Below, piece by piece: positions 1-8,206 of a stretch of 8,206 bases of DNA. The stretch is from a virus (lineage: Duplodnaviria; Heunggongvirae; Uroviricota; Caudoviricetes). The DNA is taken from the IMG/VR virus record IMGVR_UViG_2585427776_000003, one strand, 5' to 3'. Under the pieces are notes generated by a model. That model had not been told where the DNA came from. It worked only from the letters and a program-made list of their open reading frames with translations, and searched no databases. Position 1 is the first letter of the stretch. Each line of letters opens with the position of its first letter. The translations under genes and the position numbers were made by a program.

Positions 1-759
1 GCGCAGCGCGATGACTGGCTGAAGAAAGAGATACAGCGCGTATACGATGAAAATCACAAGGTATACGGTGTGCGTAAAGTCTGGCGTCAGTTGTTACGGG
101 AAGGTATCAGAGTGGCCAGATGCACTGTGGCACGTCTCATGGCGGTTATGGGACTTGCCGGTGTTCTCCGGGGTAAAAAGGTCCGTACGACCATCAGCCG
201 GAAAGCCGTTGTCGCAGGCGACCGCGTAAACCGTCAGTTCGTGGCAGAACGACCTGACCAGCTGTGGGTGGCTGATTTTACTTACGTCAGCACATGGCGG
301 GGCTTCGTCTATGTGGCGTTCATCATTGATGTGTTTGCCGGATACATCGTGGGGTGGCGGGTCTCATCGTCCATGGAAACGACATTCGTGCTGGATGCAC
401 TGGAGCAGGCGTTATGGGCCCGTCGACCGTCCGGCACGGTCCATCACAGTGATAAAGGTTCTCAGTATGTATCGCTGGCCTACACACAGCGGCTTAAGGA
501 AGCCGGATTACTGGCATCAACAGGAAGTACAGGCGACTCGTATGACAACGCGATGGCGGAGAGCATCAATGGTCTTTACAAAGCGGAGGTAATACACCGT
601 AAGAGCTGGAAAAACCGTGCAGAAGTGGAACTGGCCACACTCACGTGGGTGGACTGGTATAACAATCGACGATTGCTGGAAAGGCTGGGCCATACTCCTC
701 CGGCAGAAGCAGAAAAAGCTTATTATGCTTCCATCGGAAACGATGATCTGGCAGCCTGA
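1..759 (+). CDS. IS3-family transposase OrfB (DDE/rve integrase domain), 5'-partial, IS629-like
   Basis: Frame 1 is open from the window edge (AQRDDWLKKEIQRVYDENHKVYG...) to TGA at 757-759. DDE signature seen: WVADFTYV, HHSDKGSQY and YDNAMAESINGLYKAE with the conserved K/R downstream of E. The 70..759 ORF in the track is this gene with a spurious internal GTG start. Confidence 0.93.
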   Translation, partial: AQRDDWLKKEIQRVYDENHKVYGVRKVWRQLLREGIRVARCTVARLMAVMGLAGVLRGKKVRTTISRKAVVAGDRVNRQFVAERPDQLWVADFTYVSTWRGFVYVAFIIDVFAGYIVGWRVSSSMETTFVLDALEQALWARRPSGTVHHSDKGSQYVSLAYTQRLKEAGLLASTGSTGDSYDNAMAESINGLYKAEVIHRKSWKNRAEVELATLTWVDWYNNRRLLERLGHTPPAEAEKAYYASIGNDDLAA

Positions 760-2808: not shown

Positions 2809-3891
2809 TTAGAACTGGTAAACCATACCTACAGCAACGATATCATCGGTAGCAACGCCAGATGCTTTCGTGAAATCGCTCTTATCAATCAGGTTGATTT
2901 TGTAATCAACAAAAGTGGACATATTTTTGTTGAAGTAATAGGTTGCACCTACATCAATATATTCAACCAGGTCCTGATCACCCCACGCACCCAAGTCTTT
3001 TCCTTTAGATTGCAGGTAAGCAACGGACGGACGCAGACCGAAGTCGAACTGATATTGTGCAACTACTTCGAAGTTTTGTGCTTTGTTGGCAATATGGTTA
3101 TTACCAAAAACAGTCATGTTCTGGGTTTCAGAATAGGTGGTAGCCAGATAGATGTTGTTCGCATCATATTTCAGACCAGCTGCCCATACTTCAGCATTTT
3201 GACCAGATGCATTCAGGCTGTTGTTACCGTAGATAACCTGATTATTAGTGCGGTCAGATTTAGCATAGGTTGCACCTACACCGAATCCTTCATACTCATA
3301 AGTAGTGGAGAAACCGAAACCATCACCATTAGCTTCAGTTACGTCAGTGCGGTCATTTTTACCCTGATACTGAGCAGCAAAGTTCAGACCATCAACCAGA
3401 CCAAAGAAGTCGTTGTTACGATAAGTTGCAACACCAGTGGTGCGACCAGTCATGAACACATCTGTTTGGGTCCAGGTATCGCCACCGAATTCTGGCAGAA
3501 CGTCAGTCCACGCACCGATGTCATATGCTACACCGTAGTTACGGCCGTAATCGATTGAGCCGTAGTCCCCGAATTTCAGGCCTGCAAATGCAAGACGGGT
3601 TTTGTCTTTGGAGGAGCCTTGAGATTCAGCGCGGTTGCCTTTGAATTCATATTCCCACTGACCGAAACCAGTCAGTTGATCGTTGATTTGGGTTTCACCT
3701 TTGAAGCCAAGACGGGCATAAGTAGTATCACCATCATCTGCATCATTAGAGGAGAAGTAGTGCTTGGCATTAACTTTCCCATATAGATCCAGCTTGTTAC
3801 TGTCTTTATTATAAATTTCAGCTGCCTGAGCAGACATCGCCATCAGTACTGATGCAGCTACAGCAGAAATTGCCACTGTTAATTTTTTCAT
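2809..3891 (-). CDS. nmpC: OmpC/OmpF/PhoE-family general porin (NmpC/OmpD-like), apparently intact
   Basis: Signal peptide [23 protein letters not shown], then mature N-terminus [17 protein letters not shown]. Aromatic/Gly-rich beta-barrel pattern and C-terminus ...GMVYQF with the terminal Phe typical of OMP barrels. Start taken at ATG 3891 (complement); the track ORF to 3951 adds 20 unlikely residues. Confidence 0.93.
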
Positions 3892-4478
3892 CGTGAGCCC
3901 TTTTTTTGAACTATTATTAAAAAATGATGTCACTGCGCGATAAATATTCATCTAATCAATGTGATTATTTCAAGATGTAAGTTTTAGTTTCTCATTTAAT
4001 TTGTGAAGTAGATCTCTATTTTTATCTGAACTTTTTCTATCGAAACCTATTTGTGGCTCTTATTTGAACAAAAGTAAACCTATTAGCTAATTTATATTAA
4101 TAGTTGTTATTTATGGAGGCTCTATAATTCGGCAGTTTAATTTAAATCAACTAAAAATAACGCCTGAAATTATTTATTGGTTATTTGTTGAGGTTTTCTT
4201 ATGTATTTGTGGTGGTGTTTTGAACACTCGGTAGCATTCTCATAAATATCATTCAGTGGTTTACGTACGTAAAAAATTGGTTATGCTGTTAAGAGTGGTT
4301 ACTTCGTCACACAGCTTAAACCCGCCGTCGAGCTGGTTTTTCCATTTTCTGAGTCTCGATATTAGCTGATAACTCAATACCTGAGTTATTCACTGACTCC
4401 GAGTCTGTTACGTTTCTGCTTTTTTGCGATACGTTGTATTCCCTCAATTTACACCCGCTTTGTCTGCGAGGTGGGGTT
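3892..4478. promoter_or_regulatory. AT-rich intergenic region (~590 bp) upstream of nmpC on the minus strand and upstream of the lysis cassette on the plus strand; promoter(s) not resolved
   Basis: Visibly AT-rich with many A/T runs (3900-4260 especially) and no convincing ORF. The minus strand contains GGTTTACTTTTGTTCAAATAAG (plus-strand complement around 4059-4080), which resembles OmpR-box half-sites of porin promoters. Confidence 0.4.
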
Positions 4479-5680: not shown

Positions 5681-5974
5681 TTATTGTGAGCAATACACAC
5701 GCGCTTCCAGCGGAGTATAAATGCCTAAAGTAATAAAACCGAGCAATCCATTTACGAATGTTTGCTGGGTTTCTGTTTTAACAACATTTTCTGCGCCGCC
5801 ACAAATTTTGGCTGCATCGACAGTTTTCTTCTGCCCAATTCCAGAAACGAAGAAATGATGGGTGATGGTTTCCTTTGGTGCTACTGCTGCCGGTTTGTTT
5901 TGAACAGTAAACGTCTGTTGAGCACATCCTGTAATAAGCAGGGCCAGCGCAGTAGCGAGTAGCATTTTTTTCAT
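5681..5974 (-). CDS. borD: Bor/Iss-family outer-membrane lipoprotein
   Basis: Product MKKMLLATALALLITGCAQQTF... has a lipoprotein signal with lipobox LITGC. 97 aa, opposite strand immediately after Rz, as for lambda bor. Confidence 0.9.
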   Translation of the reverse strand: MKKMLLATALALLITGCAQQTFTVQNKPAAVAPKETITHHFFVSGIGQKKTVDAAKICGGAENVVKTETQQTFVNGLLGFITLGIYTPLEARVYCSQ

Positions 5975-6107
5975 GGTGTTATTCCCGATGCTTTTTGAAG
6001 TTCGCAGAATCGTATGTGTAGAAAATTAAACAAACCCTAAACAATGAGTTGAAATTTCATATTGTTAATATTTATTAATGTATGTCAGGTGCGATGAATC
6101 GTCATTG

Positions 6108-6172
6108 TATTCCCGGATTAACTATGTCCACAGCCCTGACGGGGAACTTCTCTGCGGGAGTGTCCGGGAATA
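6108..6172. repeat. 10-bp inverted repeat TATTCCCGGA ... TCCGGGAATA separated by 45 bp, in the borD-ybcV intergenic region
   Basis: Read directly: 6108-6117 and 6163-6172 are exact reverse complements. The spacer is GC-rich with CCC/GGG runs (CAGCCCTGACGGGGAAC...GCGGGAG). Confidence 0.5.
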
Positions 6173-6264
6173 ATTAAAAACGATGCACACAGGGTTTAGC
6201 GCGTACACGTATTGCATTATGCCAACGCCCCGGTGCTGACACGGAAGAAACCGGACGTTATGAT

Positions 6265-6675
6265 TTAGCGTGGAAAGATTTGTGTAGTGTTCTGAATGCT
6301 CTCAGTAAATAGTAATGAATTATCAAAGGTATAGTAATATCTTTTATGTTCATGGATATTTGTAACCCATCGGAAAACTCCTGCTTTAGCAAGATTTTCC
6401 CTGTATTGCTGAAATGTGATTTCTCTTGATTTCAACCTATCATAGGACGTTTCTATAAGATGCGTGTTTCTTGAGAATTTAACATTTACAACCTTTTTAA
6501 GTCCTTTTATTAACACGGTGTTATCGTTTTCTAACACGATGTGAATATTATCTGTGGCTAGATAGTAAATATAATGTGAGACGTTGTGACGTTTTAGTTC
6601 AGAATAAAACAATTCACAGTTTAAATCTTTTCGCACTTGATCGAATATTTCTTTAAAAATGGCAACCTGAGCCAT
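6265..6675 (-). CDS. ybcV: YbcV-like protein (DUF1398), 136 aa; function unknown
   Basis: Open frame with the best RBS (GGAAGG, 8-nt spacing) ahead of ATG at 6675 ([13 protein letters not shown]...). In-frame upstream alternative starts at 6717 (ATG) and 6798 (GTG) lack an SD. Codon usage is visibly AT-rich compared with neighbouring phage core genes. Confidence 0.8.
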
Positions 6676-6960
6676 TGGTAAAACCTTCCATGTGATACGA
6701 GGGCGCGTAGTTTGCATTATCGTTTTTATCGTTTCAATCTGGTCTGACCTCTTTGTGTTTTGTTGATGATTTATGTCAAATATTAGGAATGTTTTCACTT
6801 AATAGTATTGGTTGCGTAACAAAGTGCGGTCCTGCTGGCATTCTGGAGGGAAATACAACCGACAGATGTATGTAAGGCCAACGTGCTCAAATCTTCATAC
6901 AGAAAGATTTGAAGTAATATTTTAACCGCTAGATGAAGAGCAAGCGCATGGAGCGACAAA

Positions 6961-7167
6961 ATGAATAAAGAACAATCTGCTGATGATCCCTCCGTGGATC
7001 TGATTCGTGTAAAAAATATGCTTAATAGCACCATTTCTATGAGTTACCCTGATGTTGTAATTGCATGTATAGAACATAAGGTGTCTCTGGAAGCATTCAG
7101 AGCAATTGAGGCAGCGTTGGTGAAGCACGATAATAATATGAAGGATTATTCCCTGGTGGTTGACTGA
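6961..7167 (+). CDS. ybcW: YbcW-like small protein (68 aa); function unknown
   Basis: ATG at 6961 with GGAG 8 nt upstream. Product [68 protein letters not shown] has no TM segment and is predicted mostly helical. Confidence 0.7.
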
Positions 7168-7331
7168 TCACCATAACTGCTAATCATTCAAACTATTTAG
7201 CCTGTGACAGAGCCAACACGCAGTCTGTCACTGTCAGGAAAGTGGTAAAACTGCAACTCAATTACTGCAATGCCCTCGTAATTAAGTGAATTTACAATAT
7301 CGTCCTGTTCGGAGGGAAGAACGCGGGATGT

Positions 7332-7526
7332 TCATTCTTCATCACTTTTAATTGATGTATATGCTCTCTTTTCTGACGTTAGTCTCCGACGGCAGGCTTC
7401 AATGACCCAGGCTGAGAAATTCCCGGACCCTTTTTGCTCAAGAGCGATGTTAATTTGTTCAATCATTTGGTTAGGAAAGCGGATGTTGCGGGTTGTTGTT
7501 CTGCGGGTTCTGTTCTTCGTTGACAT
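7332..7526 (-). CDS. ylcI: YlcI-like small basic protein (DUF3950), possible ribbon-helix-helix-type DNA binder
   Basis: 64-aa ORF MSTKNRTRRTTTRNIRFPNQMIEQINIALEQKGSGNFSAWVIEACRRRL... has a basic N-terminus, then a short beta-like segment (RNIRFP) and a helix, a pattern reminiscent of Arc/MetJ/CopG folds. Convergent with ybcW; its start lies about 200 bp from cosN. Confidence 0.7.
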   Translation of the reverse strand: MSTKNRTRRTTTRNIRFPNQMIEQINIALEQKGSGNFSAWVIEACRRRLTSEKRAYTSIKSDEE

Positions 7527-7725
7527 GAGGTTGCCCCGTATTCAGTGTCGCTGATTTGTATTGTCTGAAGTTGTTTTTACGTTAAGTTGATGCAGATCAA
7601 TTAATACGATACCTGCGTCATAATTGATTATTTGACGTGGTTTGATGGCGTAGATGCACGTTGTGACATGTAGATGATAATTATTATCATTTTGCGGGTC
7701 CTTTCCGGCGATCCGACAGGTTACG

Positions 7726-7737
7726 GGGCGGCGACCT
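7726..7737 (+). other. cosN 12-nt cohesive-end sequence GGGCGGCGACCT (terminase nicking site)
   Basis: Exact match to the lambda 12-nt 5' overhang as I recall it, flanked by lambda-like cosQ-side sequence (CGACAGGTTACG). Confidence 0.85.
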
Positions 7738-7775
7738 CGCGGGTTTTCGCTATTTATGAAAATTTTCCGGTTTAA

Positions 7776-7890
7776 GGCGTTTCCGTTCTTCTTCGTCGTA
7801 ACTTAATGTTTTTATTTAAAATACCCCCTGAAAAGAAAGGAAACGACAGGTGCTGAAAACGAACTTTTGGGCCTTTGTCGTTTCCTTTCT
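7776..7890 (+). other. cosB: gpNu1 binding sites R3 (about 7776-7791), R2 (about 7838-7853, inverted), R1 (about 7875-7890), with an AT-rich IHF-type bend site between R3 and R2
   Basis: Three copies of the CGTTTCC core (GGCGTTTCCGTTCTTC; GGAAACGACAGGTGC on the opposite strand; TTGTCGTTTCCTTTCT) in the lambda arrangement. Exact site boundaries are approximate and from memory. Confidence 0.7.
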
Positions 7891-7914
7891 CTGTTTTTGG
7901 CCGTGGAATGAACA

Positions 7915-8206
7915 ATGGAAGTCAACAAAAAGCAGCTGGCTGACATTTTCGGTGCGAGTATCCGTACCATTCAGAACTGGCAGGAACAGGGAATGCCCGT
8001 TCTGCGAGGCGGTGGCAAGGGTAATGAGGTGCTTTATGACTCTGCCGCCGTTATAAGATGGTATGCCGAAAGGGATGCTGAAATTGAGAACGAAAAGCTG
8101 CGCCGGGAGGTTGAAGAACTGCGGCAGTCCAGCGAGGCAGATCTCCAGCCAGGGACTATTGAGTACGAACGCCATCGACTTACGCGTGCGCAGGCCGACG
8201 CACAGG
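7915..8206 (+). CDS. nohD: terminase small subunit, lambda Nu1 type, 3'-partial (runs off the window)
   Basis: ATG at 7915. Product MEVNKKQLADIFGASIRTIQNWQEQGMPVLRGGGKGNEVLYDSAAVIRWYAERDAEIENEKLRREVEELRQ... has the winged-HTH N-terminus of lambda gpNu1. No stop before the window end, which is why it is absent from the ORF track. Confidence 0.93.
   Translation, partial: MEVNKKQLADIFGASIRTIQNWQEQGMPVLRGGGKGNEVLYDSAAVIRWYAERDAEIENEKLRREVEELRQSSEADLQPGTIEYERHRLTRAQADAQ

Follow-up and report, generated by a model that had tools for sequence, protein, structure and literature searches.

ybcW of a DLP12-like prophage, the counterpart of phage lambda lambdap79, is an accessory gene that assorts independently of ybcV

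The 68-codon open reading frame at 6961..7167 on the plus strand of the 8,206-nucleotide stretch of DNA analysed here (the window) is ybcW, the form that phage lambda gene lambdap79 takes in DLP12-type prophages, and it is a genuine accessory gene. Its minus-strand neighbour ybcV (lambdap78) is a separate, optional insertion and not a functional partner of ybcW, and the divergent layout of the two genes is a mosaic junction of independently assorting blocks, not a two-gene module. Overall, the findings are probably best explained if ybcW is a genuine but non-essential accessory gene of the late operon, with ybcV as an independent neighbour, that comes under host regulation in the silent prophage.

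Gene map, identity and coding status of ybcW

The window, judged by its gene content, is a segment of a DLP12-like lambdoid prophage. An IS3-family transposase fragment at the left end is followed by ybcN, ninE, ybcO and rusA in that order, by quuD, which encodes a Q-type antiterminator (plus strand), by an intact porin gene (minus strand) and by the lysis genes for holin, lysozyme, Rz and Rz1 (plus strand). Next come the lipoprotein moron bor (5681..5974, minus strand; Pfam Lambda_Bor) and then ybcV (6265..6675, minus strand), which encodes a DUF1398 protein of 136 amino acids (Pfam match over residues 8-126 with an E value of 1.5e-46) and has a homologue, YdfO, with a solved structure (2HH8). 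Beyond ybcW, and convergent with it, is ylcI (7332..7526, minus strand), assigned to DUF3950 by Pfam and to YlcI_YnfO_N by NCBIfam; ybcW and ylcI have been described as a convergent excludon (PMC12288877). The GC content is 33-42% across positions 6000-7200, versus 45-55% in the lysis genes. The first-pass annotation had assigned ybcV and ybcW to a phage accessory slot, and they are indeed located in low-GC DNA between the lysis cassette and the cos/terminase region.

From 6200 to 7330 the window is 99.7% identical to positions 46977-48107 of phage lambda, the annotation of which identifies ybcV as lambdap78 and ybcW as lambdap79. YbcW does not differ from its lambda counterpart at any residue (100% identity), and the same protein is present in 80 viral contigs. 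Residues 1-68 of 68 match PHROG 657, for which no function is known (E value 7.5e-48), and the protein has no match in Pfam, NCBIfam, PADLOC or, by sequence, the PDB; PADLOC likewise returned nothing for YlcI and only a marginal match for YbcV (E value 0.001). The gene is therefore not new: the annotations of lambda and of E. coli K-12 already contain it, and its PHROG family is assigned. Both lambdap79 and the YbcW of K-12 DLP12 (b0559) have the identical protein, 99.7% identical DNA, the same orientation and the same neighbours as in the window (bor, ybcV/lambdap78, ylcI and cos). There is no substantive difference, the prophage of the window being set apart by its intact porin gene and its left-end IS3-family element.

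The identities of the two genes, their divergent layout and a spacer of 285 bp (6676-6960), all given by the first-pass annotation, are confirmed by the open reading frames, by Pfam and by the lambda annotation. This spacer is measured from the start codon of ybcV at ATG 6675. In the program-made open reading frame, ybcV begins at GTG 6798, which would reduce the spacer to only 162 bp, and lambdap78 is annotated in lambda as 534 nt, a 177-amino-acid form that likewise reaches GTG 6798. The 177-amino-acid form is unsupported: homology to ybcV-only loci ends at window position 6754, which is 79 bp upstream of ATG 6675, and most of the extension is deleted in the E166 allele. Because the extension is not conserved and ybcV is annotated as 411 nt in E. 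coli RefSeq, 285 bp is the better figure.

The window contains 84 open reading frames of 30 or more amino acids, so a bare open reading frame of 68 codons is unremarkable in itself; ybcW is accepted as a real gene because it is conserved in frame. The good Shine-Dalgarno sequence ascribed to it earlier is present as GGAG at 6950..6953 (plus strand, read from the sequence), 7 nt before ATG 6961. In an alignment of 12 sequences of the module, 14 of the 15 columns in the bin 6950-6964 are invariant, and the conservation of the Shine-Dalgarno region is visible also in an upstream alignment of 10 sequences. An alternative start at M20 was rejected, as it has no Shine-Dalgarno sequence whereas ATG 6961 and its Shine-Dalgarno sequence are invariant.

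The variants of ybcW that were compared came from E. coli genomes, Escherichia phages and E. ruysiae. Matches in two very large protein searches were mostly error-containing copies on ENA contigs of approximately 3.5 kb which, from their size and frameshift-type differences, look like the nanopore lambda control fragment, and few genuine variants emerged from them. The family is tiny: a search of 1.84 billion proteins gave 199 representatives at E values of 1e-3 or less, mostly noise, and a scan of genome contigs gave 36 matches, most of them the identical lambda allele in unrelated taxa, which is apparent contamination with lambda DNA. True ybcW diversity in the contig scan is limited to Escherichia.

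There are 14 distinct ybcW coding sequences and all 14 have 68 codons. Within this small and recombinant sample of alleles, for which dN/dS values rest on few substitutions, the pairwise omega of codons 18-68 (the core) is 0.13-0.30 by the Nei-Gojobori method, and the variable sites of the core are 12 synonymous and 10 non-synonymous where 22% would be expected to be synonymous (binomial p = 8e-4), corresponding to an omega of approximately 0.23. For codons 1-17, the Nei-Gojobori omega is approximately 1.4 versus diverged alleles (0.83 for L124 and 0.46 for L126), and the count of variable sites gives approximately 0.85 (p = 0.46), which is indistinguishable from neutral evolution. In the PhiR30_1 allele, identity steps from 100% in the first 17 codons to 94% over the remaining coding sequence, indicating a recombination breakpoint within ybcW. 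A homologue with 54% identity, P0198, resides in a different, non-lambdoid mobile element with AlpA and Zn_ribbon_11/DUF7828 genes; between it and ybcW the core has a pS of 0.76 (saturated) and a pN of 0.22. When P0198 was used as the query, no further relatives were found, and it is a singleton. The dN/dS test thus bears out conservation of ybcW at the protein level: ybcW evolves as a protein, and purifying selection is confined to its core.

Independent assortment of ybcV and ybcW

The co-occurrence of the two genes was counted in 5,426 complete E. coli genomes. DNA resembling ybcW is found at 2160 places in 2009 genomes, and DNA resembling ybcV at 3868 places in 3025 genomes, while the 1131-bp segment with both genes is at least 80% covered in 1402 genomes. 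Approximately 32% of ybcW loci are without ybcV, having the arrangement gnsB-ybcW-terminase, and roughly 60% of ybcV-like loci (more than 2000 places) are without ybcW, having the ynfO-ydfO arrangement of Qin type. A direct junction of gnsB to ybcW at 95% identity or better is present in approximately 640 genomes, in agreement with the 637 records in which the ybcW allele has 80-90% nucleotide identity; the allele with 99% identity or better accounts for at least 950 records. ybcV is absent from each of the seven loci sampled in the 80-90% allele class (L121 and L126 among them), and alleles with 91% or greater protein identity are all accompanied by ybcV. In Qin-type loci, the ybcV paralogue ydfO is located on the same strand as the ylcI paralogue ynfO, 57 bp downstream of it, and there is no ybcW.

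These arrangements resolve the region into blocks, with boundaries at 6754, 6802/6843, 7313 and 7364. The ybcV-associated block (6246..6754, minus strand), which is common to the ybcV-only (ydfO-ynfO) loci, includes the 79 bp upstream of the ybcV start codon; its blastn boundaries are 6246-6754 versus L130 and 6090-6754 versus L131, and the megablast end point of ybcV homology is at query position 555. The ybcW-associated block (6802..7313, plus strand), which is common to loci without ybcV, consists of approximately 155 bp upstream, the coding sequence and approximately 146 bp downstream; its blastn boundaries are 6802-7313 versus the ybcW-only locus L121 and 6843-7313 versus L126. Between the two blocks is a 47-bp junction segment (6755-6801) that is present only where ybcV and ybcW both occur. 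The shared spacer is therefore not kept wherever the genes occur, being a junction of two blocks plus this segment. Homology to Qin extends over window positions 6246-6754 and 7364-8206, and lambda/DLP12 differs from Qin by positions 6755-7363, which carry ybcW. The flanks of ybcW diverge by 18-24% versus a dS of approximately 0.25, i.e., at about the synonymous rate, indicating no constraint beyond shared ancestry.

Transcription of ybcW and alternative explanations

ybcW shares the plus strand with Q and with the genes for holin, lysozyme, Rz and Rz1. No other plus-strand gene separates it from terS in any of the lambdoid loci examined; the non-lambdoid P0198 is the exception to this position between lysis genes and terS. 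A scan of the window found no terminator-like site on the plus strand between Rz and ybcW, and none downstream of ybcW before 7486. Phage lambda fails to plate under a dCas12a roadblock in p79 though the gene is non-essential, an effect that the authors attributed to polarity on the late transcript; the same treatment of bor or lambdap78 is without effect (PMC10695390). The late-strand position of ybcW, together with Q, the lysis genes and the terminase genes, suggests that during lytic growth it would be made from the Q-antiterminated late transcript, which is supported in lambda and would extend by identity to this prophage. ybcW is most readily understood as a gene carried along in the Q-dependent late operon, and bor and ybcV as opposite-strand insertions. 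The late operon as the main context of ybcW transcription did not feature in the first-pass annotation.

In the silent prophage, ybcW may be transcribed weakly from a putative promoter in the AT-rich spacer under the control of FNR, ArcA and PdhR. A scan for the sigma-70 consensus found no promoter in the spacer (6676-6960), and -35/-10 candidates picked by hand near 6909-6935 were rejected for poor spacing and a poor -10 element. In K-12, an FNR ChIP-chip peak has been assigned to ybcW along with an FNR-dependent change in transcript (PMC1802558). The site proposed in that study is an FNR-like box, ATGAT-TTAT-GTCAA, with two mismatches (6766..6779, centre 6772.5), inside the junction segment. 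FNR-type sites with two mismatches number 7 in the window versus 6.6 expected, which by sequence alone is not beyond chance. Part of the ybcW signal could also come from a perfect FNR box at 7587-7600, which has a ChIP peak of its own at a distance of only 530 bp from that of ybcW. A class II FNR promoter is possible from the geometry of the site, with transcription starting at approximately 6814-6815, the centre of the box approximately 41.5-42.5 bp upstream, and TAGTAT (6803..6808, plus strand) as the candidate -10 hexamer; this hexamer was not picked up by the consensus promoter scan. As for ArcA, ybcW is down 2.6-fold in an arcA mutant of K-12, indicating activation, with the peak located in ybcV, and the supplement of that study records "no TSS" for ybcW (PMC3798270).

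Such effects would be expected if ybcW were mainly a moron of lysogenic conversion, expressed from the prophage through FNR and ArcA in the anaerobic gut to the benefit of the host. This explanation, which is unlikely, would also account for the low GC content that ybcW has in common with bor and ybcV, and for its intact state in the defective DLP12 prophages of many lineages, including the records at 99% identity or better. However, about one third of all ybcW loci, those without ybcV, do not have the proposed FNR box, and in them a terminator-like hairpin after gnsB precedes ybcW. The effects on expression are also small (1.8-fold in microaerobic growth and 2.6-fold in the arcA mutant), no transcription start was recorded in the ArcA study, and the protein is clearly made in lytic infection by lambda vir, where it is sensed by the Vulcan defence system. 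bor, lom and ybcV/ydfO resemble ybcW in being small, low in GC, non-essential and located in the region from lysis genes to cos, and all of them are kept in cryptic prophages with some host-regulated prophage expression. The classic morons bor and ybcV, however, are opposite to the late operon and autonomously transcribed, whereas ybcW runs along the late operon everywhere. Although its base composition is unlike that of the neighbouring phage genes, a terminator of its own was not found, and ybcW does not fit the full definition of a moron.

The third regulator, PdhR, affects both genes. In K-12, a SELEX peak and a PdhR box that matches at 10 of 14 positions were reported in the spacer at position 578887, and in a pdhR mutant the mRNA of ybcV is down 10.0-fold and that of ybcW 8.9-fold (PMC7660256). 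This position maps to 6745 in the window, where a PdhR-like box, ATCTGGTCTGACCTCTT, can be read at 6737..6753; it is a weak match that was not recovered by a consensus scan allowing three mismatches. ybcV and ybcW of K-12 also rise together in microaerobic growth (1.7-fold and 1.8-fold, respectively) and upon expression of T4 MotB. Joint responses of this kind, and the preservation of layout and spacing in lambda, in DLP12, in 80 of 80 viral contigs with the identical allele and in approximately 1400 E. coli genomes, would be in keeping with the proposal that ybcV and ybcW are a divergent module, co-regulated from back-to-back promoters and acting jointly. That proposal is nonetheless improbable. 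Descent that is nearly clonal (99-100% identity) accounts for the preserved layout, and the PdhR and FNR boxes fall outside the ybcW block: ybcW-only loci lack them, and E166 has lost them by deletion but retains both genes. In Qin-type loci it is ynfO/ylcI that accompanies ybcV on the same strand as its natural partner, and no match to ybcV was found near the distant homologue P0198 in the 4.5 kb fetched, of which only 272 bp are upstream before the contig ends.

Since these boxes do not belong to the ybcW block and are found neither in ybcW-only loci nor in E166, the control of prophage expression by host regulators seems to belong to the lambda/DLP12 junction and not to ybcW as such. The earlier expectation of regulation from the spacer thus holds in part: the effects of FNR, ArcA and PdhR in the K-12 literature speak for it, while the missing sigma-70 consensus and the location of the boxes speak against it. 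Likewise, the reading of the two genes as a divergent pair receives weak support from shared regulator effects in K-12, but the small regulatory or cargo module that the first-pass annotation had envisaged fails because ybcV and ybcW occur independently of each other.

A role of ybcW as an accessory factor for DNA packaging or cos, though compatible with its constant position before terS and its late timing of expression, is very improbable: ybcW occurs beside two unrelated types of small terminase (Nu1/NohD and DUF1441), is non-essential in lambda, where deletion escapees still form plaques, is lacking from Qin-type phages with the Nu1-like nohA, and has a homologue in a non-lambdoid element.

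RNA structure was considered on both sides of the gene. Rfam gave no match at the gathering score in the window and none at E values of 1 or less in 6600-7400. The 5′ leader of ybcW in the window folds better than shuffled sequences (z -2.8), but as a structural element it was rejected, since the consensus of the alignment reaches only -6.95 kcal/mol with little covariation; a perfect 9-bp inverted repeat at 6887-6912 is not kept in other alleles. The 3′ flank contains the inverted repeat GTGACAGA-N12-TCTGTCAC, the stem of which is invariant. Folding was near that of shuffled sequences both for the whole flank (z -0.5 on the plus strand and -0.4 on the minus strand) and for the 51-nt hairpin segment (z -0.9 and -0.95, respectively). 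This hairpin too was rejected as an element, as it has no T-run and no folding signal and its flank diverges at the synonymous rate, which points to shared ancestry. The idea that the open reading frame is non-functional as a protein and that a cis-acting RNA or DNA element is conserved instead, for which the leader and the 3′ stem might be cited, is the least probable of all in view of these results, the excess of synonymous change in a fixed frame of 68 codons, the protein-level conservation versus P0198 despite saturated synonymous sites, and the ability of the synthesized gene alone to trigger Vulcan.

The YbcW protein and its significance

The YbcW protein is acidic (pI 4.9), not hydrophobic (GRAVY -0.11) and predicted to be helical, the AF2 model being a three-helix bundle of moderate confidence (pLDDT 72). 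The first-pass description of a soluble, helical-looking product with no identifiable motif agrees with these properties and with the lack of a profile match. Structure searches gave nothing specific, and Foldseek no significant match; three-helix bundles of the staphylococcal protein A Z-domain type have 13% identity or less to YbcW and a very common fold, so that the resemblance is one of shape only. Taken with the pattern of selection, the model suggests that in YbcW a conserved core of three helices follows an N-terminal tail that evolves freely and is presumed to be disordered.

Expression of lambdap79 alone activates the Vulcan NADase defence, and co-expression of the two is toxic; a synthesized lambdap79 gene is sufficient, Vulcan senses the lambdap79 product during infection by lambda vir, and lambda vir escapees of Vulcan delete lambdap79 through recombination with Qin (bioRxiv 10.64898/2026.09.04.749371). 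The published deletion fits the flanks of Qin homology in the window (6246-6754 and 7364-8206). Other phages blocked by Vulcan are without lambdap79 (bioRxiv 10.64898/2026.09.04.749371), so lambdap79 is only one of several triggers. Switching on the Vulcan NADase abortive-infection system by its expression alone is the only demonstrated activity of YbcW. In this it is like other trigger proteins of abortive infection, which are likewise small, dispensable phage proteins whose expression activates an effector and whose deletion allows escape; the Vulcan effector activated by lambdap79 is an NADase with a NIR domain.

By analogy, YbcW might tentatively be regarded as a small protein-binding factor aimed at a component of the host or of its defences. 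The idea of a protein binder or counter-defence factor draws on size, charge, a generic fold and analogy. A more elaborate scenario, which is rather unlikely, would make YbcW a late effector of counter-defence or host takeover: the core would bind a host target, the tail (omega approximately 0.85-1.4) would owe its rapid change to an arms race in which Vulcan and similar sensors are the opponents, and the FNR/ArcA-responsive junction would be a secondary gain that allows use by the prophage under anaerobic conditions.

The main value of this analysis is to clear the finding: ybcW is a known gene that has already been touched by studies of CRISPRi, ChIP, SELEX and the Vulcan system. Four points are added: the blocks of ybcV, ybcW and ylcI/ynfO assort independently of one another; within this region ybcW is the member on the late strand; purifying selection acts in the core of YbcW only; and the published regulator sites fall in a junction specific to one lineage. 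What lambdap79 normally does is a small question in the best-studied of phages, and one that the trigger phenotype in the Vulcan system has now made experimentally approachable.

Gene order around ybcW

In Qin-type loci, ynfO and ydfO (paralogues of ylcI and ybcV, respectively) lie side by side in the same orientation with 57 bp between them (L130 2520-3221; L131 2567-3268), an adjacency which suggests that they form a transcription unit that is split in lambda and DLP12 by the block containing ybcW. Such a split fits the published description of ybcW and ylcI as a convergent excludon (PMC12288877).

The ylcI gene of the window (7332-7526), encoding a DUF3950 protein, has a 100% identical counterpart in lambda, on the minus strand at 4113-4304 of the lambda locus L001 (approximately 48112-48303 of the lambda genome); the annotation of NC_001416 does not include this orf. 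The lambda homolog of YbcV, lambdap78, is annotated as a 177-residue "head protein" or "putative envelope protein," and PHROG 413 is likewise labeled "head protein." The length of 177 residues is probably an annotation artefact, because the DUF1398 domain is consistent with a 136-residue form and the N-terminal extension (window 6676-6798) is not conserved.

Alleles and a distant homolog of ybcW

The leader of ybcW in the window contains a 9-bp perfect inverted repeat, TCAAATCTT (6887-6895) and AAGATTTGA (6904-6912), that drives the good predicted fold of this leader; the repeat is not retained in the other ybcW allele classes. From upstream of the gene through codon 17, the allele of phage PhiR30_1 (L127 2501-2707) is 100% identical to the window; identity then falls to 94% in the core (codons 18-68) and 82% downstream, a change that indicates a recombination breakpoint inside ybcW. 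A 63-residue homolog with 54% sequence identity to YbcW (P0198, a singleton cluster) is encoded by a non-lambdoid element (L128/L129 273-464). The neighbors of the homolog include AlpA, a weak match to REP_ORF2-G2P and two DUF7828/Zn_ribbon_11 genes, which points to a possible satellite or integrative element.

Other features of the window

On the minus strand at 2809-3951, the prophage carries an intact porin gene (nmpC/ompC-like, Porin_1); the K-12 copy is interrupted by IS5. At the left end, an IS3-family integrase-core orf (70-759, plus strand) adjoins the NinB-like ybcN orf, which is shortened (118 residues versus 151 in L002, a comparison locus). The stretch from ylcI to the nohD start contains a perfect FNR consensus, TTGATGCAGATCAA (7587-7600), corresponding to the published nohB/nohA target of FNR ChIP, for which reported fusions showed little transcriptional effect.

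Probable lambda DNA in sequence databases

The genome of "Campylobacter phage CJLB-4" (MW057783.1; 48,361 bp) matches window 6200-7330 over its full length with 99.7% identity, and its genes are arranged as in lambda; rather than a phage of Campylobacter, this is probably lambda itself. Assemblies labeled, among others, Pseudomonas, Streptomyces, Enterococcus, Cohnella and Flavobacterium (L083-L118) also carry an exact copy of the right end of lambda with ybcW, and this right end recurs in thousands of ENA contigs of approximately 3.5 kb with frameshift-like errors (proteins P0001-P0120). These copies in unrelated assemblies and short contigs look like contaminating lambda control or spike-in DNA, which makes the ybcW family appear larger and its host range wider.
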